From a virus, in IMG/VR virus record IMGVR_UViG_3300025127_006147, positions 1 through 64,000 of that record: a stretch of DNA of 64,000 nt, one strand, 5' to 3'. How positions within the stretch are numbered: position 1 is the stretch's first letter; each line of letters starts with the position of its first letter. The position numbers were made by a program, and so were the translations under genes. Under the pieces are notes generated by a model. That model had not been told where the DNA came from, made no database searches, and saw only the letters and a list, made by a program, of their open reading frames with translations. Shown piece after piece: positions 22,161 through 50,435 of the stretch.

Positions 22161-22526
22161 TTAATCAAATTTTGCATTAATCCATACTTGGTTCATGCTT
22201 TTATCACCATTTGGGTTATAGTTTGGTCTAGGTTCATTAAAATTTTCAGTTGTAGGATTCCAATTACGTACCCTATCTAGTCTAAAAAATTTCCACCCAG
22301 GAACTTCAGTATCTGTAGCTCCTTCGGTTTGCCAAGCTCTAACTACAGGATTATTTCTTTTAGTTGTTCCTGCACACACTGGTTCTATTGTTCTCCATCC
22401 AGGATTATTAATAGTATCTCCCTCATAGTAAATAACAGCAGTATTTCTATTTTTTATAGCTTTTTGGACTTCGTCCCTATTAGCTACTTCAAGTATAATG
22501 GAAGACAGTGTGTTGTAAAGTTTCAT
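22161..22526 (-). CDS. Stand-alone WYL-domain-like protein
   Basis: IYYEG..WRTIEPV..VVRAW..WKFFRLDRV matches the WYL R-x-I-E-P and F-R-L-D-R-I/V signatures. Confidence 0.75.
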   Translation of the reverse strand: MKLYNTLSSIILEVANRDEVQKAIKNRNTAVIYYEGDTINNPGWRTIEPVCAGTTKRNNPVVRAWQTEGATDTEVPGWKFFRLDRVRNWNPTTENFNEPRPNYNPNGDKSMNQVWINAKFD

Positions 22527-38102: not shown

Positions 38103-41100
38103 ATGGCAACAGACGGAAAAGTTTTTGTATCCCCAGGGGTATACACGTCAGAGAAAGATTTAAGTTTCGTAGCACAAAGTGTGGGAGTAACAACACTTGG
38201 TTTAGCTGGTGAAACTCTTCAGGGTCCTGCTTTTGAACCTATTTTCATAAGTTCATATGGAGAATTCCAAACCTATTTCGGTTCATTAAACCCAGAAAAG
38301 TTTACGGAAACACAAATCCCTAAATACGAATTATCATATATAGCAAAAGCATATTTACAACAATCTAATCAGTTATTTGTGACTAGAGTATTAGGTTATT
38401 CTGGATATGACGCTGGACCTTCTTGGTCAATAACAACAATAGGTAACCCTGATTGTGAAACTATTAGAACTCAGTGTGCTGACACTACAAGTACAGTATA
38501 TAGTGCTTCTACATGTAACACTGGAACGGCTTTTGAGTCAACTAGTGGTTCTACTGCTGTGGTAAATAGTGGTTCTGTTGGGTTATACTTTACTGGAGGG
38601 ACTGACGTTTGGACTGATTCATCCACAACTGTTAAACCTATTGATTCTTTACCTTGGCCTATTTCTGAAAAAATAAATGAAACTTTAACAAAAACAGATG
38701 GTAGTAGTACAACTATTTCTGCCGAGTTAGATAGTATGTTATCTACATATTACTCTAGTTTATCACACATAGCAGTATGTGCAACTGGAGGTACCCCATG
38801 TTTCTTACCTATGACAGGAGGAACTAGTGTAGAAAAAGCTTTTGGTTGTAACTATGATGGAGATACGGTTTCAGGAAATACATTATATGAAGGAACATAT
38901 TTAGAAAATGCAGGAACACCAGCATCTTCAGGATACACTTACCAGTCTAAATTTAGTGGTATAACAGAAACACAAGTTTTAGGTTCTTCTTGTAACCCTA
39001 AACCTTCAGTATTCTGTAATGACATTAACGACCCTTGGTTATACGGATTCTTTGACCTAGTTCCTGGAACAGACCAGTATACTGGTTTCTCAATGAGTAT
39101 CGGTATCAATACTAATGATGTTTTAGATATTAGTACATCCGCTCAAACAACATTATATTCTGGAGATTCTGCTTTAAGATTCTCTTACACATTATATACA
39201 GGAGAAACTTTCTGTAACTACAACGATTTAGTAGTCGCAACTTTCCGTTCAAGAGGTGTAAGTACACAAAATTCAGGTGGACCTGTTTATCAAGTAACTG
39301 GTGGAACAGATGTTACAATGGTTTGTACGGGAGACACTTTCTCCAAAGTAAATACTGACCCATTTGCCACTTTTGGTATGGATGTTACAGATAAAGACGG
39401 TGATTCATTTAGATTTGAAACTTCTATGTCTCCATCATCTAAAGACTTTGTTAAACGAGTATTTGGGGTGGCACCGTTTGATAAACAAATGGAACAAGTT
39501 CCAATCTTTGTAGAGGAAGCTTATCCTAACATGTTAACATACGCTTATAAGAAGGGTTACATTAAAGGATTAAACTGTAGTCTACTAGATTTACCTTCAT
39601 TTAGAGATTCTAATAATACTGGAACTATTGGTTTCTACCAAGAACAATGGCAAACCCCAGTAACACCTTATGTTGTTTCTGAACTAAGAGGTACCAAAGT
39701 ATATAAATTATTTAGATTTATATCTATATGTGATGGTAACGCAGCTAACACACAAGTTAAAATATCTATTGTTAACATTTCATTTGAAAGAAATGAATTC
39801 GATGTGTTAGTTAGAAGTTTCTATGACACAGACGCTTCACCAGTTGTATTGGAAAGATATACAAGATGTAGTATGAATCCTAATTTGAACTCTTTTGTTG
39901 GGGTTAAAATTGGTACCGCTAATGGTGAATATGAATTGAAGAGTAGATACATTATGGTAGACTTAGACCCAGAACAAGAGACTGACACTAACCGTCATGA
40001 TGCTGTTCCTTGTGGATTCGAAGGTTATGTGACTAGAAATTACTTAGGAGAACAAAGTCCTACATTATACTATAAAACAAAATATAATAAACCAGGTGAT
40101 ATAATCTGGAACCCACCTTTCGCTGTAAGTTCAACTGTGGATAACTCAGTGATAAGTGCGGGAGATAAAATTAGAAGAGTTTATTTAGGTATTTCTGATA
40201 CTGCAGCTTCAGCTTATGACGATGACTTCTTCCAATATAAAGGAAAACAAGCACCTACAGATAAATGTAATGATTTAGATGGTACAGACTGGAATTGTTT
40301 AACTCAAGGATTCCATATGGATAGTGGAGCGACTTGTGTAAATACTTTAGGTGAGTTATGTGTAACTACACTTTGTAAAAATTGTGGTACTGGAACAACA
40401 ACTGAAGACCAGTTCGCTGTTGGTGTAGCACCGTTTAGAAGTGAACCAACTAATTCACAGGACCCATACTACACATTACAGTCTAGAAAATTCACATTAG
40501 CACCGTATGGTGGTTTTGATGGATGGGACATTTATAGAAAATCAAGAAGTAACGGAGATAGTTATGTTAGAGGTAAATCAGGGTTCTTAAACGGAGCTTG
40601 TACTTCAACTACATTCCCTAACGCGTCTGGTGATGGTTCATTTAAACTATTATCAAGCACTCCTTGGGGTGAATCAGGATTCTTCGCAACAACTGACTAT
40701 TACGCTTATTTCTTCGGTATTAGAACATTTAGAAACCCAGAAGCGGTTAACATTAACGTATTAGCAACACCAGGTATTGACTATGTAAACAATAGTAACC
40801 TTGTAGAGGAAACAATTGACATGGTAGAAACTGAAAGAGCTGATTCACTGTATGTTACTACAACACCTGACTACAACTTGTTTGTACCAGGAGCTACGGT
40901 AGCGGCAAACATAATCCAACCTACTGAAGCGGTAGATAACTTAGATTTAACAGCAATCGATTCTAACTACACCGCTACTTACTACCCATGGGTACAGTAC
41001 AACGACCAAGAGAACAATACAAGAGTATGGTTACCACCTACTTATGATGTAATGAGAAACATTGCTTTAACAGATAATATCTCATTCCCTTGGTTCGCGT

Positions 41101-41582
41101 CCGCTGGTTACACTAGAGGTATTGTAAACGCGGTTAAAGCTAGAAAGAAACTTACTCTTGATGAAAGAGATACGTTATACGCTGGTAGAATTAACCCAAT
41201 CGCAACTTACTCAGATGTTGGTACTATTATCTGGGGTAACAAGACACTACAAAGTAGACAATCTGCATTAGACAGAATCAACGTTAGAAGATTGTTACTA
41301 CAGGCTAGAAAATTAATTTCGGCAGTAGCAGTTAAATTGTTATTCGAACAAAATGACGAACAAGTAAGAAACGAATTCTTAGACTTAGTTAACCCAATCT
41401 TAGACTCTATTAGAAGAGAGAGAGGTTTAACAGACTTTAGAGTTGTTCTTTCTGACGACCCACAATTGATTGACCAAAATACATTAGAAGGTAAGATTTA
41501 CATAAAACCAACTAGGTCTCTAGAATTTATCGATATCGAATTCTTAATTACACCTACTGGAGCATCATTTGAAAATGTATAA
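38103..41582 (+). CDS. Contractile tail sheath protein (gp18-like) with large insertions
   Basis: N-terminal SPGVYTSEKDLS; C-terminal WFASAGYTRG, RINPI, IWGNKTL, DRINVRRLL, RSLEFI. Confidence 0.95.
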   Translation: MATDGKVFVSPGVYTSEKDLSFVAQSVGVTTLGLAGETLQGPAFEPIFISSYGEFQTYFGSLNPEKFTETQIPKYELSYIAKAYLQQSNQLFVTRVLGYSGYDAGPSWSITTIGNPDCETIRTQCADTTSTVYSASTCNTGTAFESTSGSTAVVNSGSVGLYFTGGTDVWTDSSTTVKPIDSLPWPISEKINETLTKTDGSSTTISAELDSMLSTYYSSLSHIAVCATGGTPCFLPMTGGTSVEKAFGCNYDGDTVSGNTLYEGTYLENAGTPASSGYTYQSKFSGITETQVLGSSCNPKPSVFCNDINDPWLYGFFDLVPGTDQYTGFSMSIGINTNDVLDISTSAQTTLYSGDSALRFSYTLYTGETFCNYNDLVVATFRSRGVSTQNSGGPVYQVTGGTDVTMVCTGDTFSKVNTDPFATFGMDVTDKDGDSFRFETSMSPSSKDFVKRVFGVAPFDKQMEQVPIFVEEAYPNMLTYAYKKGYIKGLNCSLLDLPSFRDSNNTGTIGFYQEQWQTPVTPYVVSELRGTKVYKLFRFISICDGNAANTQVKISIVNISFERNEFDVLVRSFYDTDASPVVLERYTRCSMNPNLNSFVGVKIGTANGEYELKSRYIMVDLDPEQETDTNRHDAVPCGFEGYVTRNYLGEQSPTLYYKTKYNKPGDIIWNPPFAVSSTVDNSVISAGDKIRRVYLGISDTAASAYDDDFFQYKGKQAPTDKCNDLDGTDWNCLTQGFHMDSGATCVNTLGELCVTTLCKNCGTGTTTEDQFAVGVAPFRSEPTNSQDPYYTLQSRKFTLAPYGGFDGWDIYRKSRSNGDSYVRGKSGFLNGACTSTTFPNASGDGSFKLLSSTPWGESGFFATTDYYAYFFGIRTFRNPEAVNINVLATPGIDYVNNSNLVEETIDMVETERADSLYVTTTPDYNLFVPGATVAANIIQPTEAVDNLDLTAIDSNYTATYYPWVQYNDQENNTRVWLPPTYDVMRNIALTDNISFPWFASAGYTRGIVNAVKARKKLTLDERDTLYAGRINPIATYSDVGTIIWGNKTLQSRQSALDRINVRRLLLQARKLISAVAVKLLFEQNDEQVRNEFLDLVNPILDSIRRERGLTDFRVVLSDDPQLIDQNTLEGKIYIKPTRSLEFIDIEFLITPTGASFENV

Positions 41583-41608: not shown

Positions 41609-43558
41609 ATGAAACTTAATTATAAAAAACAAAAATTAGTAGAAAGTTTAGGTTTTAACGTAAATTTCAAAAACCATTATGGTAATAAACCACAAAACGT
41701 TAAAGTAACACCAGACCAGTTCAAAAGATTAATGGAGTCTTACTTAGTATATGAGGAAGAAATACACAAGGAAGAGGAGGATTTAGAGTTAGCAGAATTC
41801 TCTGATTCATTCCAAGACGAACTTGACCAAGACATATTAGATGAAATGGATATGGAAAAAGAAACCAAAGAAGGGTATGGTAAAAAACATATGGACGAAA
41901 TGAACTTTGGTGATGACGGTGGTTTGAATTTACCTTCAGATGTAGATATGGATACTGAAAACGACAATAACCCGATTGATTTAGATGAATATGGTTATCA
42001 GTCTATTGACCATTCTGATAGAGACGAGTTCGATGGTAGAAAATCTAGAGTTGTTGGGGTATATTCAGACATTAACAAACAACGTTATGGGATGAATGAA
42101 GATTCTGAAGGAGAGGAAACATATCACTACGATGAAGATTTACACCATGACAGAGATGAATTACATCATTTAGAACGTGAAAGAAGTCACGCTCATGGTG
42201 GACATAAGTCCGACCTAGACCAACATATCGCAGCTCTAATTGATTCAATGAAGTATGACGATAAAAGAGGTGTGGGTAAAGATGATATGTACAGAAGAGA
42301 ACCAGGAACACACTTTTACCATGAAGGAAACGGTTTAGCGGAATCTGTTGACAAAACTTTTAAAATGATTAGAGAATCTATTAGAAGAGAAAGACCAAAA
42401 GGTTTAAGAATGAGTAACTATAGTAGAAAAACTTTAAATGAACAATTTGTTGGTTATACTGAAATGGGTGAACAATTCTATGGTGGTAGAGGTAACTACA
42501 ATAATCCTGGAGTAAATGCCGCTAAGGGTATTGAAGAGTTAGTTAAGAACATTAAAAAAGCTTATAACTTTATTAAAGATTCAAGAACTAGAAAACAAAT
42601 TGAAAACACCTTAGTTAAGTTACAAAACTTTATGGCTATCACAGCTGACGCAGTTATGGCAGGTAAACAACAAAGAGCACCTAGAAGAAATGACCAATTA
42701 ACTAGACCATTACCTTATCCTGAATTAGACGAACCAGAAGATTTAGAGGATATTGATGATGAGTTAGATTTAGATTCACTTAATGAGTCCCAAAAACGTA
42801 GTTTGGTTAGAGAAGCTAAAAGAGAGTTGAGAAGAAGAGCTTTAGTTGAAGAATTTTATTTACTTAACGAACAGGACGGAAAAGATAAAATTAAACAGTT
42901 AAAAGACGCTTTAAAAAGAGAAAGACAAGCTAAAAGAGATTTAAACAAACTAGGAAGAAAAGAACAAAGAGAAGAAAGAAAAAAAGCTAGAGAACAAAGA
43001 AAAGAACTCAAAAAATTCGAACAACTATGTTCTAAATTTCCAGACGCTCCAGAATGTTCTGATAAAGATGAATTCGTAAAAGATGTTGAACAAGAAATTA
43101 CAAAGGTAGAAGTTGCAACAAAAGATGCGGAAAAAGATTTCCAAAAACCCCCATCTGGGATACCAGATAAAAAACCTGGTGATTCGGTTAGTGGAAAAGA
43201 AACATCAAAGTTATGTCAACTAAAAGGAGACAAAACCTATGAGTATAAAGTAGAAAATGATGAGTGGTACAGTAGAAAAAGAGGTACAACTAAATGGAAC
43301 TCATTAGCTGGAGATAAATTTACTTTAGCAAGAGCAAGGTTAGATAAAGGTTGCCCAACGTTTAGAAAAACTAAAGAAGAAATGCCAGATGACGCGGTTA
43401 GTTCACAGGAAGATAAAGTGAGTTCAGCTACACAAACAAATGACCCAGATTCTTGGAAATCAAATATTCCAGGAAATGACCCAAAAAAGGACGCTGAAGC
43501 AAGACAAAGAGCCAGAGAATTTGCAGCTATGGGGTACCAAGGTTATTCAGGTAATTAA
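41609..43558 (+). CDS. Acidic, His-rich, coiled-coil hypothetical protein (possible internal head/scaffold protein)
   Basis: ORF track; D/E-rich blocks, His cluster, K/R/E coiled coil, repeated L/M/I-x-E-S/Q junctions. Confidence 0.7.
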   Translation: MKLNYKKQKLVESLGFNVNFKNHYGNKPQNVKVTPDQFKRLMESYLVYEEEIHKEEEDLELAEFSDSFQDELDQDILDEMDMEKETKEGYGKKHMDEMNFGDDGGLNLPSDVDMDTENDNNPIDLDEYGYQSIDHSDRDEFDGRKSRVVGVYSDINKQRYGMNEDSEGEETYHYDEDLHHDRDELHHLERERSHAHGGHKSDLDQHIAALIDSMKYDDKRGVGKDDMYRREPGTHFYHEGNGLAESVDKTFKMIRESIRRERPKGLRMSNYSRKTLNEQFVGYTEMGEQFYGGRGNYNNPGVNAAKGIEELVKNIKKAYNFIKDSRTRKQIENTLVKLQNFMAITADAVMAGKQQRAPRRNDQLTRPLPYPELDEPEDLEDIDDELDLDSLNESQKRSLVREAKRELRRRALVEEFYLLNEQDGKDKIKQLKDALKRERQAKRDLNKLGRKEQREERKKAREQRKELKKFEQLCSKFPDAPECSDKDEFVKDVEQEITKVEVATKDAEKDFQKPPSGIPDKKPGDSVSGKETSKLCQLKGDKTYEYKVENDEWYSRKRGTTKWNSLAGDKFTLARARLDKGCPTFRKTKEEMPDDAVSSQEDKVSSATQTNDPDSWKSNIPGNDPKKDAEARQRAREFAAMGYQGYSGN

Positions 43559-44709: not shown

Positions 44710-44736
44710 GTTTTTCTTTTATCGTTTTGTTATATA

Positions 44737-44768
44737 CAAATATAAGAGCTTTATTTTAAAATACCAAA
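44737..44768 (-). promoter_or_regulatory. Bacteroidota sigma-A-type promoter
   Basis: Minus strand TTTG-N20-TATATTTG. Confidence 0.72.
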
Positions 44769-44788
44769 TTAAATTTATCTTTTTTTTG

Positions 44789-44819
44789 TTTGTTTACTAA
44801 ATATTTTTTCTTATATTTG
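44789..44819 (+). promoter_or_regulatory. Bacteroidota sigma-A-type promoter
   Basis: Plus strand TTTG-N19-TATATTTG, upstream of 44843. Confidence 0.72.
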
Positions 44820-44842
44820 TATCGAACTTTAAAACATAATAA

Positions 44843-45283
44843 ATGAAATTAGCACTTTTTGACTTTGATAATACATTATTTAAAACCCCTTATGACGAAA
44901 GTCCAAGTTATATGGATAAACCAGAAAGTTTATCAATACGTAAATGGAAATTCGAACCAATACTTGAGACTATAAAAAAGTTTAAAGAATGTAAAAAAGA
45001 AAAAAATACGAAAGTTATTTTACTTACAAATAGAATTGACAATGTTTACTCAGAATTAAAGACTTTATTAGAGGAATACGGTTTGGTATTTGACGACTAC
45101 AAAATGATTATTGGTGTGGATGGTGATAGGTCTAAAGGTAAACGAGTAAAGGACTTGATATTAAATAATAACGTGGGTTCTGTTGAGTATTGGGAAGATA
45201 AAGATAAACATATAGAAGATGTCAAAAACACCATGGACTTTTTTCCAGAGATAGAATTAAAAATAAATAAAGTAGTTATTTAA
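44843..45283 (+). CDS. HAD-superfamily phosphatase
   Basis: LALFDFDNTLFKTP (motif I), LLTNR (II), K (III), YWEDKDKHIE (IV). Confidence 0.85.
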   Translation: MKLALFDFDNTLFKTPYDESPSYMDKPESLSIRKWKFEPILETIKKFKECKKEKNTKVILLTNRIDNVYSELKTLLEEYGLVFDDYKMIIGVDGDRSKGKRVKDLILNNNVGSVEYWEDKDKHIEDVKNTMDFFPEIELKINKVVI

Positions 45284-45929
45284 TTCTATTAATACTACCA
45301 GTAGCCCTTTCTCCTTTAGGTAAATCTCTAGTATTATCTACAATCCAATAATTATCTACCATAGGAATTAAATCTTTAACAACTCTTCTAACTTTATCGT
45401 GATAATCAATAACCATGTCTCTAGGTAAACTTCGGTCTCTTTCTTGATTTCTCTCCAAAGCTTTATCCAATTCTGTAACAACATGAACTATAGTTACAGC
45501 ATAACCATTGTCTTTAGCTAAATTAATTACATCATTCATAACTTGTCTTTGACCACCACCCGCATCATATACAATATTAGGTGTGTGATTTCTCTCCACC
45601 TCTAAAAAGTTCTTTAAAAATCTAATAGTTAAATTTCTAGGGTCTGATGTGGTATATGACATATCTAATATCTTTTTATAACCCTCGTCAGTAGAAATAT
45701 TTTCTTTCCAAGAATCACCCCAGATTTTTTTAGCTAACGCTACTCTATAGTTGTCTACATTAAATTGTTTGTAATCAGGTAAGTCTATAAAGTTTTGTGT
45801 AACGAAACTTTTTCCCGCACCTGGGCCACCAGCAATAATTACAAAATTACCCTGAGGTCTATCAAATCCAACTACCCTGGACTCAACAAACATTAATCTT
45901 TTGATTTTCTCAATTTCTTTTAGTAGCAT
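45276..45929 (-). CDS. P-loop nucleotide kinase (zeta-toxin/AAA_33/PNK-like) with N-terminal leader
   Basis: IIAGGPGAGKS, FNVD, VYDAGG, ALERNQERDR lid. Confidence 0.82.
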   Translation of the reverse strand: MLLKEIEKIKRLMFVESRVVGFDRPQGNFVIIAGGPGAGKSFVTQNFIDLPDYKQFNVDNYRVALAKKIWGDSWKENISTDEGYKKILDMSYTTSDPRNLTIRFLKNFLEVERNHTPNIVYDAGGGQRQVMNDVINLAKDNGYAVTIVHVVTELDKALERNQERDRSLPRDMVIDYHDKVRRVVKDLIPMVDNYWIVDNTRDLPKGERATGSINRIK

Positions 45930-45937
45930 ATCTTTAT

Positions 45938-45951
45938 ATAAATATATTTAT
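45938..45951. promoter_or_regulatory. Back-to-back late-promoter palindrome ATAAATATATTTAT
   Basis: Gives TATTTAT on each strand, facing the divergent kinase and deoC genes. Confidence 0.62.
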
Positions 45952-45973
45952 TAATGATAATAATACAATAATC

Positions 45974-46780
45974 ATGAACACAAAATTACTTATCGAAAGA
46001 ATGATGAGATTAATGGAAATAGAAGACATTAAGTCTGATATTTCAAATTATCTCGATTCAACGTATTTAAAAACATCAGAACAAGCTGGTATCTCAGACG
46101 AAGAAACTAAAAACAACGTTATGTCATTATTAGATGACGCTTTAAACCATAATATGAAATTAGTTATGGTAAGACCAGAACAGGTAGAATTAGCCAGAGA
46201 AGTAATAGACCAAAGAAACGGTAATACTTTAGTTGGTACAGTAATTGATTTCCCGTTTGGAAATGGTAGTACTTCAGATAAAGTTAATGAAGCTAAAAGA
46301 GCCATTAATATGGGTGTAGATGAAATTGATTATGTAACGGACTATAAATCTTTTAAGGCAGGAAATATAGAAAAATTTATTAGAGACATTGTAGATGGAA
46401 CCAGGGTTGGTATGGATGCTGGTAAAGTTGTTAAGTGGATTATAGAAAGTGAAGCTCTTACAAACCAAGAAATACAAGACATAACTCAGCTTATCAGAGA
46501 TGTGGTAGTTAATGAGTTTGGTGAGATACCAGCATCATCTGTTTTTGTTAAAACATCTACGGGATTTTTTAACGGTGAAAAACCAAATCCTGAAAAAACT
46601 AAAGAAGAAGACGTAATAATTATGTCTCAAAATGCTGGACCACTGAGGGTTAAAGCTTCTGGTGGTATTTATACTATAGACGATTTAAATAAAATGGTTA
46701 AAGCTGGAGCTAGTAGAATCGGAACTTCAGCTGCCAAAGAAATAATACGTGGTGATAAAGACGTTATAAAAGATTATTAA
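45974..46780 (+). CDS. deoC: Deoxyribose-phosphate aldolase with N-terminal leader
   Basis: LDSTYL, TVIDFPFG, DEIDYV, VKWIIE, FVKTSTG (Schiff-base Lys), VKASGGI, GASRIGTS. Confidence 0.92.
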   Translation: MNTKLLIERMMRLMEIEDIKSDISNYLDSTYLKTSEQAGISDEETKNNVMSLLDDALNHNMKLVMVRPEQVELAREVIDQRNGNTLVGTVIDFPFGNGSTSDKVNEAKRAINMGVDEIDYVTDYKSFKAGNIEKFIRDIVDGTRVGMDAGKVVKWIIESEALTNQEIQDITQLIRDVVVNEFGEIPASSVFVKTSTGFFNGEKPNPEKTKEEDVIIMSQNAGPLRVKASGGIYTIDDLNKMVKAGASRIGTSAAKEIIRGDKDVIKDY

Positions 46781-46781
46781 A

Positions 46782-47663
46782 ATGAGTAAACGAATTAGAC
46801 AAATAATTAGAGAACAAGCTGGATTAAATTTATCCGTACAGGATGAAATCGGTAATTTGAACCCTAATGAAAGACAACAAATTAAGGGAGCGTTAATAGA
46901 TTTATTAAATAATAATCCAGAACAGGAAATGTCAGAAATAGAGTATGGTGGTATTCCTGAGTTAAAAGCTACTGGTTTAGTAGGTAAAATAGGTAAGTGG
47001 TTTAAAAGATTCTTAACAGATAAAGCTTCAGACTATTTAATCGACGCTAGTGCACAAGAAATGGAGGACACCATAAAATTAATTGACGCGTTAGACCCTA
47101 ATGACTTGACTGGTATATTCACTCCTAGAGCAATGTATTTAGGTGGTGGTATAGATTTTGCTGATGACGCGTTGTCATGGAGAACTCAGGTTGAGAACTT
47201 TTTTGGTCCTGGTCACGTAGTTAAAGGAGATAAATTATTTGAGTTAATTACCACGGGTAACATGAGTTTTAAAGGTCTTGATACTCCAGCAATACTTAAT
47301 CCATTAAGAGCAGAAACAGTAAGAGATGAAGACGATGAATTTCAACAAATGTTTAAACAGTGGAAAGCTGGTGAACTAGACGGACAGACATTCCAAAAAT
47401 TTAGAGAAAAGATTAGAGAACAAATAGTTGTACAAGATTTATATATGTTAAAAGTGTGTGACACTAACCTAATTAATTTTGATGGTACTGCTGGAGCTGG
47501 AACATTCGGAGAAGCTCAGTTTAGTGCTTTGAAAAACTCACAAATCTTTGTTTGGTTAACTAACGGAATGAAAATATCTAACATCTCTCCATGGATGATG
47601 CCCTCAATAACCAAAATTCTTCAAGAAGACGAACTTTGGCCTTTCTTGTCTAACTTCAAATAA
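46782..47663 (+). CDS. Nucleoside 2-deoxyribosyltransferase / DNPH1(RCL)-like N-glycosidase with ~100-aa N-terminal extension
   Basis: MYLGGG..SWR..LNPLR..DLYMLKVCD..AGTFGEA (catalytic Glu position)..SPW. Confidence 0.7.
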   Translation: MSKRIRQIIREQAGLNLSVQDEIGNLNPNERQQIKGALIDLLNNNPEQEMSEIEYGGIPELKATGLVGKIGKWFKRFLTDKASDYLIDASAQEMEDTIKLIDALDPNDLTGIFTPRAMYLGGGIDFADDALSWRTQVENFFGPGHVVKGDKLFELITTGNMSFKGLDTPAILNPLRAETVRDEDDEFQQMFKQWKAGELDGQTFQKFREKIREQIVVQDLYMLKVCDTNLINFDGTAGAGTFGEAQFSALKNSQIFVWLTNGMKISNISPWMMPSITKILQEDELWPFLSNFK

Positions 47664-48332
47664 ATGAATCTTGTCAGAAGAATATTAAGAGAATACACTG
47701 AACAACCATTAAATGAACTAGCTAGAACTAATCGTTTAATAGTTCTTGACGTTGACGATACATTACTTAAACCTTCTGGTGTATACATCTATAGAAATTT
47801 ACCTTCAGACCCCCAAGAAATTGCATTAACACCTTACGAATACGGTTTAGAAAACGTAACCCCAGAAACGAAACAATATTACGACTATAGGGACTTTTTA
47901 GACCCAGTAAAAACACAACAATCAATAGAACAAGCTGAACCAATAGTTACTAACTTATCAGTAATGGACGATTATTTAAAATTAGGTCATCAGATAGCTA
48001 TATTAACAGCAAGGTCTAATGAACAGGTTGTTTTTGACGGATTAAAACAATGGTTAATGTATAAAGACAGAAAAGGTAACCTAATACCAATAGGGGACCG
48101 TCTAAATAGAGAAAACGTATTTGCGGTAAACGACACCAACAGAATGAGTACACTAGAGTCGGAGACTGATTATGAAAAAAAGGCGGAGATAATGGAAAAA
48201 TTAGTTAAAGTTTATGACGAAATAGTTTTCATAGATGATGATATGAAAAATATTAAACAAATGAAGATGTTAAAAAGAGATTTACCGGAAGAGCTTGCTA
48301 AGAAATTATTTGTAATGCATGCTAAAGAATAA
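47664..48332 (+). CDS. HAD-superfamily phosphatase (PNK-phosphatase-like) with N-terminal leader
   Basis: LIVLDVDDTL, ILTAR, EKK, FIDDDMKNI. Confidence 0.85.
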   Translation: MNLVRRILREYTEQPLNELARTNRLIVLDVDDTLLKPSGVYIYRNLPSDPQEIALTPYEYGLENVTPETKQYYDYRDFLDPVKTQQSIEQAEPIVTNLSVMDDYLKLGHQIAILTARSNEQVVFDGLKQWLMYKDRKGNLIPIGDRLNRENVFAVNDTNRMSTLESETDYEKKAEIMEKLVKVYDEIVFIDDDMKNIKQMKMLKRDLPEELAKKLFVMHAKE

Positions 48333-48478: not shown

Positions 48479-48967
48479 ATGGCTGACTTATTAATGAAAA
48501 TGCCCATACCGTATGAACCTAAAAAGAAAAATAGGTTTATCTTAAGATTCCCTTCGTCGTTGGGTATTAATGAGTGGTATGTGGAAAGTACTTCTAGACC
48601 TGCTGTTAATATTAACCCAGTAGAAATCCCTTTCTTAAACACATCTACTTATGTAGCTGGTAGATTTACATGGAACACAATCAGTGTGACATTTAGAGAC
48701 CCTATAGGACCATCAGCGTCACAAGCACTTATGGAGTGGGTAAGATTACACGCAGAATCTGTAACAGGTAGAATGGGTTACGCTGCAGGATATAAAAAGG
48801 ACATCGATTTAGAGATGTTAGACCCTACAGGTGTTGTAGTTGAAAAGTGGATAATGCAAGGAACATTCTTAACAGACGTTAACTTCGATAGTTTAGGATA
48901 TAGTGATGATGCAATTGCAACTATTTCAGCAACCTTGAGACCAGATAGATGTATATTAGTATACTAA
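48479..48967 (+). CDS. Tail tube protein (T4 gp19-like)
   Basis: YEPKKKNRF, WNTISVTFRDPI, ALMEW, YKKDIDLEMLDPTGVVVEKW; TATTTAT at 48438-48444. Confidence 0.9.
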   Translation: MADLLMKMPIPYEPKKKNRFILRFPSSLGINEWYVESTSRPAVNINPVEIPFLNTSTYVAGRFTWNTISVTFRDPIGPSASQALMEWVRLHAESVTGRMGYAAGYKKDIDLEMLDPTGVVVEKWIMQGTFLTDVNFDSLGYSDDAIATISATLRPDRCILVY

Positions 48968-48987: not shown

Positions 48988-49016
48988 AAAACCCGTACTT
49001 AGTGTATGGGTTTTTT
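48988..49016. terminator. Intrinsic terminator (probably bidirectional)
   Basis: AAAACCCGTAC-TTAGT-GTATGGGTTTTTT between the tail tube and the convergent Mom-like gene. Confidence 0.8.
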
Positions 49017-49628
49017 ATTTAAAGGAGCTTTGTTTTTTATTTTAGGGTAAGGTTTTTCTTCCCATAAACAATTTAGTGTTTTATCAAAAACCATTAAGTA
49101 CCTGTGTTTACGTTCACGAGGTCGCCATTCACCTTTTTTACCTTTAACTGGACCTCTCTGATGTTTAACAAAAGAACCATCCCCTAACTCAAACCAAAAG
49201 TCTTTTTTAGAGTCAGTTAAACCGTAATATTTAAAATTTGTGGCTTGATATATAAAACCAGTGTGTAGAGAAGAATCTGCATAAGATAGTATGGACCTAA
49301 CCGTTGTTTCTTTTTTTAATTTTTTTATACATCTAGAAACAAACCAAGACAATATGTTCTTTTCTTTAATTTGAGGGTCTAAACATAAACGACCTAATTC
49401 ATATACACCGTTTTGTTCTGTTCTACTTAAACCAAAACAGCCTTTTAATGTTTCGGGTACCGATGGAGAGTGAAACACACAAACACCAACTAAAACAGTA
49501 TCCTTATATAAACCAAAATTAAAACCAGTTCTAAAGCCTTTACTTTTTTTATTTAAATAATGATATTGTGAAAGTATGGACTTACATAAATCTTTACTTA
49601 TTATTTGTATGTTATAGGTTTTATTCAT
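48999..49628 (-). CDS. Mu Mom-like GNAT-fold DNA-modification protein
   Basis: YHYL, VGVCVF, YELGRLCL, SWFVSRCIKKL, LSYAD, HTGFIYQATNFKYYG. Confidence 0.7.
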   Translation of the reverse strand: MNKTYNIQIISKDLCKSILSQYHYLNKKSKGFRTGFNFGLYKDTVLVGVCVFHSPSVPETLKGCFGLSRTEQNGVYELGRLCLDPQIKEKNILSWFVSRCIKKLKKETTVRSILSYADSSLHTGFIYQATNFKYYGLTDSKKDFWFELGDGSFVKHQRGPVKGKKGEWRPRERKHRYLMVFDKTLNCLWEEKPYPKIKNKAPLNKKPIH

Positions 49629-49676: not shown

Positions 49677-50435
49677 ATGGACCCAAGAGAATACTCAGAC
49701 CCGTCACAATCAAACATCCCTTATGATGTGGTACCATTACCATCTAAAGGTATGTTTTACAAAAACAAACTGGAGTCTGTAAAGGTAACATATCTCACCG
49801 CAGCAGATGAAAATCTTTTAAGTTCCCCTAATATTGTTGAAAGTGGAAATATAATAGATGAACTACTTAGAAGAAAAATTTTAGGTAGTGAAGTTAACAT
49901 AACCGAAATGTTAGAATGTGATAAACAAGCTGTTCTAATATTTTTACGTAATACTGCTTTTGGACCAGTATATGAATTCACTTTAACTGACCCACAAACC
50001 AAACAAACATTTAATCACTCACACGATTTAAGTAACGTGAGTATGAAGGAGTTTAATTTAGTTGCTGATGAAAAGGGAGAGTTTTCTTACACACTTCCTA
50101 TAACAAAAAAAGTAGTTAAATTTAAATTCTTAAGTTCAACACAAGAAACAGAACTAACCAATATAGACACACAATATCAAGGACGAATTTCACCTAAAGT
50201 AACAAAAAGACTAGAATATCTTATACAAGAGATAGAGGGTGAAAGAGATAAGGGTAATTTAGCACAAATGATTCAATCAATGCCCATAAAAGATTCTCAG
50301 GAGTTTAGAAACTACGTTAGAGATAACGAACCTGGGTTGGATTTAAAAATAACAGTTAGGGCACCGTCAGGAGAAGAGGTTACAACTTCGGTTGTTCTTG
50401 GTGCCCATTTTTTTCGTCCTTTCTTCGGATTATAG
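49677..50435 (+). CDS. Tail/baseplate hub assembly chaperone (T4 gp26-like)
   Basis: VPLPSKGMFY..YLTAADENLL..DKQAVLIFLR; ends FFRPFFGL; located between tube and tape measure. Confidence 0.72.
   Translation: MDPREYSDPSQSNIPYDVVPLPSKGMFYKNKLESVKVTYLTAADENLLSSPNIVESGNIIDELLRRKILGSEVNITEMLECDKQAVLIFLRNTAFGPVYEFTLTDPQTKQTFNHSHDLSNVSMKEFNLVADEKGEFSYTLPITKKVVKFKFLSSTQETELTNIDTQYQGRISPKVTKRLEYLIQEIEGERDKGNLAQMIQSMPIKDSQEFRNYVRDNEPGLDLKITVRAPSGEEVTTSVVLGAHFFRPFFGL

Follow-up and report, generated by a model that had tools for sequence, protein, structure and literature searches.

Enzymes encoded between the tail sheath and tail tube genes of a giant T4-type marine phage carry N-terminal leaders that may be capsid-targeting tags

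Why should host-type enzymes encoded among the tail genes of a phage begin with short stretches of sequence that end in glutamate and precede the point at which such proteins normally start? The question is raised by the first 64 kb (hereafter the window) of the 194,481-bp IMG/VR virus record IMGVR_UViG_3300025127_006147 (G+C 32%, CheckV completeness ~61%), which comes from an uncultured, marine, giant and distant T4-type myovirus. The interval between its tail sheath and tail tube genes encodes, in order, a 649-amino-acid (aa) acidic protein, a 260-aa protein on the minus strand, a HAD-family protein (HAD1, plus strand), a kinase (minus), the deoxyribose-phosphate aldolase DeoC (plus), a 293-aa protein (plus) and a second HAD protein (HAD2, plus). 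The kinase, DeoC, the 293-aa protein and HAD2 each start with such a leader, and sequence comparison establishes that the leaders are extra, conserved, portable and motif-ended, and that the lineage encodes a matching protease. In phage T4, a capsid-targeting sequence (CTS) borne by IPI, IPII and IPIII, all internal proteins, and by Alt is cleaved off by the gp21 prohead protease (Mullaney and Black 1996; PMC9026906, PMC3012670). A variant of this mechanism with new tag sequences is our best reading of the locus, and we consider it somewhat probable that the four leaders are lineage-specific capsid-targeting tags cleaved by a gp21-type enzyme. The features concerned, in window coordinates, are:

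38103-41582: tail sheath gene
44843..45283, plus strand: HAD1, a leaderless HAD paralogue that starts MKLALFDFDNTL and serves as internal control
45276..45929, minus strand: P-loop kinase of the polynucleotide-kinase/PSTK kind, N-terminus MLLKEIEKIKRLMFVES
45882-45929, minus strand: type A leader of the kinase, residues 1-16, MLLKEIEKIKRLMFVE
45974..46780, plus strand: DeoC, deoxyribose-phosphate aldolase, N-terminus MNTKLLIERMMRLMEIED
45974-46024, plus strand: leader of DeoC, residues 1-17, MNTKLLIERMMRLMEIE
46782..47663, plus strand: 293-aa protein, N-terminus MSKRIRQIIREQ
46782-46814, plus strand: type B leader of the 293-aa protein, residues 1-11, MSKRIRQIIRE
47664..48332, plus strand: HAD2, a HAD phosphatase, N-terminus MNLVRRILREYTEQPLNEL
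47664-47717, plus strand: leader of HAD2 with two sites, residues 1-18, MNLVRRILRE-YTEQPLNE
48479-48967: tail tube gene

The N-termini quoted in the original prediction agree exactly with the translations, for these four proteins as for a WYL-like protein encoded elsewhere in the window, and HAD1 begins, as it had been described, at its catalytic motif with no leader. The statement that the leaders end in I/L-x-E holds for DeoC (L-M-E15, then I-E17), the 293-aa protein (I-R-E11) and HAD2 (L-R-E10 and L-N-E18) but not for the distal site of the kinase, which reads F-V-E16.

Comparison with homologues indicates that the leaders are additions to otherwise normal proteins. With DeoC as query, a full HMMER search of 1.84 billion representatives had as its best full-length matches proteins of 240–249 aa at 36–47% identity, all chromosomal, from Flavobacterium commune, Polaribacter and Flavobacteriales metagenome-assembled genomes. 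They start MKTENYLDSTYLKT, MIISGYLDATYLKT or MDIRPFIDSTYLKS (pattern M..YLDSTYLKT, with 240–248 aa and 41–47% identity for the proteins of this pattern), with their Met aligned to query residues 18–21 and their residues 2–6 to query residues 22–24. The N-termini of phage and cellular enzymes thus differ, in line with the original prediction, and residues 1 to ~20 of the phage DeoC are therefore an addition. In an AlphaFold2 model of DeoC (22-sequence alignment, mean pLDDT 91.7) the leader is a separate helix spanning residues 3–21, and confidence drops to 62 at residues 11–20, before the first barrel strand at 27–30. The N-terminus of HAD2 is 22 residues longer than that of HAD1, with position 2 of the HAD-IIIC profile aligning to residue 25 in HAD2 versus residue 3 in HAD1, and more generally the Pfam and NCBIfam domains start at residues 23–30 in HAD2 and the kinase versus residues 2–3 in HAD1. 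For an Fe/Mn superoxide dismutase (SOD) encoded by a relative, Sod_Fe_N position 5 aligns to residue 25, giving a domain start at about residue 21. By these domain boundaries, the predicted cuts fall 0–5 residues ahead of the point where the normal protein begins. For two of the genes, a misplaced start codon is ruled out on sequence grounds: the ATG of the 293-aa gene abuts the DeoC stop codon and its next Met is residue 51, so that its leader must be translated, and the catalytic DVDD motif of HAD2 occupies residues 29–32, so that its first ATG is required.

The leaders are retained among orthologues, whose variants were supplied by related IMG/VR contigs carrying the same cassette. Seven DeoC variants follow the pattern ML[NS]E[QE]I[KN]RI[KQ].LM.[IL][KR]E/Q (a slash marks the end of the leader), and seven variants of the 293-aa protein end in [IL]-[RK]-E/[YF], reading either M[RK]N[RK]IK.LL[RK]E/[YF] or MNT[RK][KR]I[LI][KR]E/F. 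HAD2 keeps [IL]-x-E at residues 10–21 in 10 of 10 full-length variants. The leader is absent from all 17 HAD1 variants, which invariably start MKL.LFDFDNTL, making HAD1 a negative control of the same fold at the same locus. A search of 5.8 billion proteins yielded 306 kinases of the lineage, and the matches listed (120 of the 306) gave 89 distinct N-termini. Among these matches, all 89 N-termini have Glu at P1 (−18 from the P-loop) and a hydrophobic residue at P4; P3 is L in 59, I in 24, F in five and V in one (L/I in 83/89, 93%); P2 varies freely (K, L, V, S, N); and P1′ is E in 76, D in seven, S in five and G in one. As a sequence pattern, P3–P1 is the same L/I-x-E logo that PMC9026906 gives for gp21.

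Two leader types recur on at least eight unrelated proteins, superoxide dismutase among them. The type B leader, M[KR]NLIKKILRE and often then.LL.E, is found on the kinase in most clades, on the Fe/Mn SOD (MRELIKKILKEGFLSE), on HAD2 (MKNLIKQILKE), on the 293-aa protein, and on a 114-aa and a 193-aa protein inserted in the cassettes of relatives. The type A leader, ML..I.[KR]I[KQ].LM...E, is found on DeoC in the clades whose kinase bears type B, and on the kinase in the clade of the present genome; orthologous kinases therefore bear different leaders. In one contig (L001), the SOD and kinase leaders share 15 of 18 residues over RELIKKIL.E.FLSE.K. and their DNA matches at 41 of 54 nt with synonymous differences, which argues for selection on the peptide and not on the DNA. 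Between sheath and tube, the gene content of the cassette varies (L036:2197-4090; L001:8543-9929; L003:9024-9949): it is reduced to HAD1, kinase and HAD2 in the closest relative (kinase 87% identical) and enlarged in others by the Fe/Mn SOD, a Cys-rich basic 233-aa protein and the 193-aa and 114-aa proteins, all with leaders. By sequence, the leader motif persists even at fusion joints: in genome G005 the kinase domain follows ...ERLLRE/EKVVGF inside a 1787-aa open reading frame (ORF), and in protein P0001 DeoC follows KKTLKE/QEGED. The 1787-aa ORF (L059:9840-15203) ends in the kinase domain and contains an HExxH motif (SLLHEHTHS) and very acidic stretches.

Against a null in which each N-terminus was shuffled, the amphipathic form h..h[IL].E is enriched among the 193 predicted proteins (12 observed versus 5 ± 2.2 in the shuffles), occurring in 6.2% of N-termini versus 1.7% of interior windows. 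A leader matrix of eight columns, trained on the leaders of relatives only, gives a per-position match rate in N-termini 5 to 49 times that in interiors and ranks the 293-aa protein first and HAD2 third in the 193-protein set; because both are orthologues of training sequences, these ranks express rarity and not independence.

A protease of the appropriate family is encoded in the lineage. Peptidase_S77 was detected in four of seven relatives (G002, G004, G005 and G007; 88.7–92 bits), including G004, which at 297 kb is the sole 93%-complete genome. The G002 protease aligns to T4 gp21 (PDB 5JBL) at 5.6e-14, and its LNHPES and SSRG motifs fall on the catalytic His and Ser. Its own N-terminus carries LIE16, the G002 scaffold protein carries LLE13, and the G002 capsid protein reads HLINE60/A, 14 residues before VFPIVRRV (VMGMVRRA in T4). 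These motifs stand at the places of cleavage in T4, whose own protease carries LIE-9 (PMC9026906).

The leader-bearing genes also share an upstream word with structural genes. TATTTAT(A) lies 11–48 nt (mostly 11–29) upstream of 45 of 193 genes, among them those of the sheath, tube and baseplate, the kinase gene and the DeoC operon. Kinase orthologues have retained it upstream, and G002 has it ahead of its genes for scaffold, protease and terminase. The association of leader and TATTTAT anticipated in the original prediction was found (odds ratio 3.7, p = 0.014). HAD1 is preceded by a different box, TA..TTTG, kept as tatatttg or tatctttg in 13 of the 16 listed upstream sequences of HAD1 orthologues and conserved also upstream of the minus-strand 260-aa gene (regions 44772-44842 and 44710-44780). 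We take TAnnTTTG to be the −7 element of Bacteroidota sigma-A-type promoters, and hence a host-type promoter. The features concerned are:

44812..44819, plus strand: TA..TTTG box TATATTTG, ~23 nt upstream of HAD1
45937..45951, no strand assigned: palindrome-like 15-mer TATAAATATATTTAT in the 44-nt divergent spacer between kinase and DeoC, with TATTTAT each way
49677-50435: T4 baseplate protein gene

A separate observation on the 15-mer is that the T4 late promoter TATAAATA, taken as its reverse complement, gives the candidate late box TATTTATA; within the 15-mer the two words overlap.

The kinase connects the present leaders to classical T4-like phages. A tblastn search of GenBank phages with the kinase returned 211 records at 24–28% identity, with E values of 1e-8 to 5e-13 for the classical T4-like homologues (E = 5e-13 for Klebsiella phage Matisse by pairwise BLASTP). 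All six homologues inspected begin with a canonical T4-type CTS-like leader ending in L-x-E:

RB43, CCL97701: MKSFKDFVSLDE/A
Klebsiella phage Matisse, gp236: MKSFKQFTESTLTE/A
Aeromonas phage 65, 65p142: MKKFSEFIKLEE/K, gene adjoining hoc
Cronobacter phage S13: MNFKEFCQLDE/A
Vibrio phage EniLVp02: ...YLEE/A
KVP40, KVP40.0065: ..FDSFLSE/N, gene adjoining gp24 and gp55

For comparison, T4 IPII and IPIII begin MKTYQEFIAE/A and IPI begins MKTFKEF...ITE/A. The classical homologues, which are annotated as hypothetical, share with the present kinase a homologous kinase domain and an N-terminal leader, theirs ending in L-x-E 27 residues before the P-loop lysine versus 24 residues in the present kinase; unlike it, they are 280 aa long with a C-terminal extension and carry a leader of the form MK.F..F...L.E. 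Judged by these sequences, a leader at the kinase N-terminus is ancient in the family and its sequence tracks the phage lineage, as one would expect if the tag has to match the core of its own lineage. In the literature we found no description of this kinase family as head proteins, nor anything relevant on CTS in KVP40, RB43 or marine T4-like phages or on virion proteomes containing the family.

Two neighbours of these classical kinases are recorded here. In RB43 and Matisse (L062:1201-2545, L064:901-2254) a HAD gene without a leader (MKFFFDMDGV...) comes directly after the CTS-bearing kinase homologue and has its own early-type, sigma70-type promoter (TTGACA...TATAGT/TATGAT), an arrangement that resembles the present pairing of the tagged kinase with leaderless HAD1. 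HAD1 and the Matisse HAD have no significant similarity (E = 0.085), so the pairing may be analogy and not ancestry. In KVP40 the kinase homologue is followed by KVP40.0066 (L063:2643-3005), which starts MKQFCNFLAE, a near-canonical T4 CTS, and contains a methyltransferase-like LDYGAGKYG motif; it is possibly another enzyme cargo.

From these comparisons we infer that the leaders bind the core and are cleaved, and that the enzymes are present in the virion and enter the next host with it. The first 11–18 residues would form a basic amphipathic helix that docks a new enzyme to the scaffolding core of the assembling prohead, where a head protease of the gp21 type (Peptidase_S77) would cleave it behind the terminal hydrophobic-[L/I]-x-Glu. 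The mature enzyme would then have a new N-terminus 0–5 residues before the point at which its cellular homologues start. The variable late-gene slot between sheath and tube would be the place where host-derived or other enzymes become cargo by gaining either leader type. We would extend this only tentatively, with rather less confidence than we place in the tags themselves, to a clade of marine Flavobacteriia-infecting giant T4-type phages that converts host-type enzymes (an aldolase, an SOD, phosphatases and a PNK-like kinase) to injected cargo through a few swappable tags, and to the tagged kinase, which would be an old and hitherto overlooked enzyme delivered by the head in T4-superfamily members ranging from RB43 and KVP40 to the present phages, with a tag co-evolving with the scaffold of each lineage.

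Set beside the T4 system, the present leaders are likewise short N-terminal tags of 10–20 aa common to unrelated, fast-changing cargo genes in plastic regions, they have hydrophobic P7, P4 and P3 and Glu at P1 (L/I-x-E), the lineage has a gp21-family protease, and the T4 cargo Alt is also an enzyme. In the T4 CTS, residues 4 and 7 are needed for targeting and residues 8 and 10 for processing (PMC9026906), and the hydrophobic P7, P4 and P3 of the present leaders correspond to these positions. The present system differs from that of T4 in comprising two leader families, in carrying ordinary host-type enzymes as cargo (DeoC, Fe/Mn SOD, HAD phosphatase and PNK-like kinase), and in the position of its genes between tail sheath and tube; it is known here from sequence alone. 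In the giant phages phiKZ, 201phi2-1 and SPN3US, many head-internal proteins are cut after Glu by a gp21-related protease (PMC5694885). These phages resemble the present case in that some processed inner proteins are enzymes (the virion RNA polymerase) and paralogues have identical N-termini, and differ in their S/A/G-x-E motif, in propeptides often longer than 100 residues, in belonging to another lineage and in having virion proteomics.

Several observations weigh against the capsid-targeting reading. The present record has no head module, and accordingly gp21 (PF03420)/Peptidase_S77 and gp23 (PF07068) are missing from it or score below cut-off. As a criterion, the I/L-x-E of the original prediction is at chance level and does not discriminate: bare [IL]-x-E occurs in the first 22 residues of 56 of the 193 predicted proteins (29%) versus 49 ± 5 after shuffling (25%; z = 1.3). 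The kinase of the present genome has F-V-E at the invariant site, and this Glu adjoins a conserved EKVVGF strand, so that its invariance may be partly structural. The leaders have no similarity to MKTYQEFIAE or MKTFKEF..., and they are basic (net +2 to +3) whereas the T4 CTS is slightly acidic. The 1787-aa ORF of G005 could be a polyprotein or a frameshift artefact, or could contain an internal start at MSQKAPLYERLLRE. TATTTAT is not over-represented in the window (42 found versus 54 expected), its only notable feature being its placement before start codons, and its role as a late promoter is a guess from sequence; a tblastn search of G000–G003 with KVP40 gp55, the late sigma factor, gave nothing significant, so that this promoter reading so far lacks a regulator. 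The rationale for injecting an aldolase or a phosphatase is unexplained, and packaging, cleavage, injection and the role of a 'metabolic or anti-defence kit' are deductions. The capsid-targeting proposal of the original prediction thus draws its strength from leaders that are extra, portable and motif-ended, from the box shared with structural genes, from the lineage's protease and from the CTS on classical kinases, and is weakened by the indiscriminate bare motif and by a record without protease or head genes.

Of the other explanations, the one that survives best is that the leaders are amphipathic docking helices, neither cut nor packaged, that serve membrane association or the assembly of the cassette enzymes into a complex or other phage structure. 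We regard this as unlikely, although the leaders are indeed basic amphipathic helices (residues 3–21 in the DeoC model), the genes lie in the tail operon and not in a head module, and the periodicity resembles that of membrane-targeting helices and of microcompartment encapsulation peptides. The latter (PduP, PduD, EutC) combine a linker with an amphipathic helix of ~18 residues at the N-terminus and load ordinary enzymes into a shell; unlike the present leaders, they are uncleaved and follow no terminal Glu rule, and bacterial microcompartment shell proteins (PF00936) gave no match in the record at E <= 1. Uncut helices do not account for a terminal Glu that never varies, beside [IL] at P3 and an unconstrained P2, for the retention of the motif at fusion joints, or for the canonical T4 CTS at the same place on classical kinases.

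More improbable still, in our judgement, is that the head protease does cut the leaders inside proheads while the proteins, for example as accessories of the core or scaffold, work in the prohead itself or are removed, with no injected kit. The sequence is silent on delivery into a host, and degradation and expulsion are the fate of most T4 core proteins and propeptides (PMC9026906), which would fit such accessories. On the other side, T4 Alt and the internal proteins, which bear the same kind of leader, are ejected (PMC9026906), and the present cargo consists of intact enzymes: DeoC passes the TIGR00126 equivalog cut-off (138.4 versus 117.3 bits) and keeps the lysines of its VKTSTG and VKASGG motifs (K193 and K227, nearly invariant in the alignment), the kinase P-loop and the HAD2 DVDD are intact, and so are both domains of the relative's SOD.

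That the leaders reflect chance, composition or wrong starts, with A/T-rich 5′ codons, a proteome rich in Lys, Ile, Leu and Glu and true starts downstream, can hardly be right: the bare motif does occur near shuffled frequency, DeoC and the kinase do have Met codons inside the leader and one database kinase call starts MFTES, but the 293-aa protein has no other usable start, HAD2 needs its first ATG, kinase leaders stay in frame across 89 variants, DNA changes are synonymous, and near-identical leaders sit on unrelated proteins whereas HAD1, of the same composition, never has one.

If leaders of this kind do target enzymes to the capsid, T4-type capsid delivery would extend beyond small anti-restriction proteins and Alt to a general, evolvable route by which functional enzymes are pre-loaded to act in the first seconds of infection. 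Cargo of uncultured phages could be predicted from sequence by the leader rule, namely a gene behind a late box whose product starts with an amphipathic helix followed by hydrophobic-[L/I]-x-E, the kinase family would be a concrete, testable candidate in the cultured RB43, Klebsiella Slopekviruses and KVP40, and the new tag sequences would broaden the T4 protein-packaging toolbox.

The enzyme assignments themselves vary in firmness. The kinase matches Pfam AAA_33 (1.9e-10, domain starting at residue 30) and, in PDB profile searches, PSTK (6e-6) and the kinase domain of C. thermocellum Pnkp (3e-3). K193 and K227 of DeoC are, we assume from E. coli DERA, the Schiff-base and helper lysines. HAD2 matches phrog_415 'polynucleotide kinase' at 1.8e-8, and both HAD1 and HAD2 match this polynucleotide-kinase phosphatase PHROG. 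Because of these profile matches, the tagged PNK-like kinase and PNK-phosphatase-like HAD, which form the invariant core of the cassette, may, as a guess, be a split nucleic-acid end-healing pair. The 'NDT-like' label that had been given to the 293-aa protein survives as a weak lead (PF15891 at E = 0.029, 15 bits versus a cut-off of 30; Atlas scores 0.77–0.78); its PDB profile search gave noise only, and its AlphaFold2 model (3-sequence alignment, pLDDT 41.6) is unusable.

Three further genes of the window deserve mention:

22161..22526, minus strand: WYL-like 121-aa protein, N-terminus MKLYNTLSSIILEV, leader residues 1-13 = MKLYNTLSSIILE
41609..43558, plus strand: acidic 649-aa protein directly after the tail sheath gene, starting MKLNYKKQKLVE/S
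48999-49628, minus strand: Mom-family protein between the tail tube and baseplate genes

In the WYL-like protein, WYL profile position 4 aligns to residue 18 (E = 9e-4, below cut-off), and the G003 orthologue reads MKLFNTLKTLIVE/S. The acidic protein, for which profile scans gave no family match, is possibly a further leader-bearing protein; its 248-aa orthologue in G006 starts MKFNYKKQKLVE/S despite the large length difference. Among relatives the acidic protein ranges from 248 to 649 aa and retains the MK.NYKKQKLVE/S start and a KTRKQIENTLVKL block, and G002 encodes a paralogue-like protein with a MWANLAKIAAGA block ~5 kb past the portal and terminase genes of its head-gene region.

No GenBank phage contains DNA near-identical to the window. 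By sheath and capsid protein together, the closest cultured phages are Microcystis phage Mel-JY01, Flavobacterium phage vB_FspM_immuto and Rhodothermus phage RM378 (30–43% identity), and by capsid protein alone the closest cultured relatives are 37–43% identical. The TA..TTTG boxes and the Flavobacterium and Polaribacter homologues of DeoC point to a Bacteroidota host. The Mom-family protein (PF25680, 3.9e-30) is kept in relatives and hints at DNA base modification.

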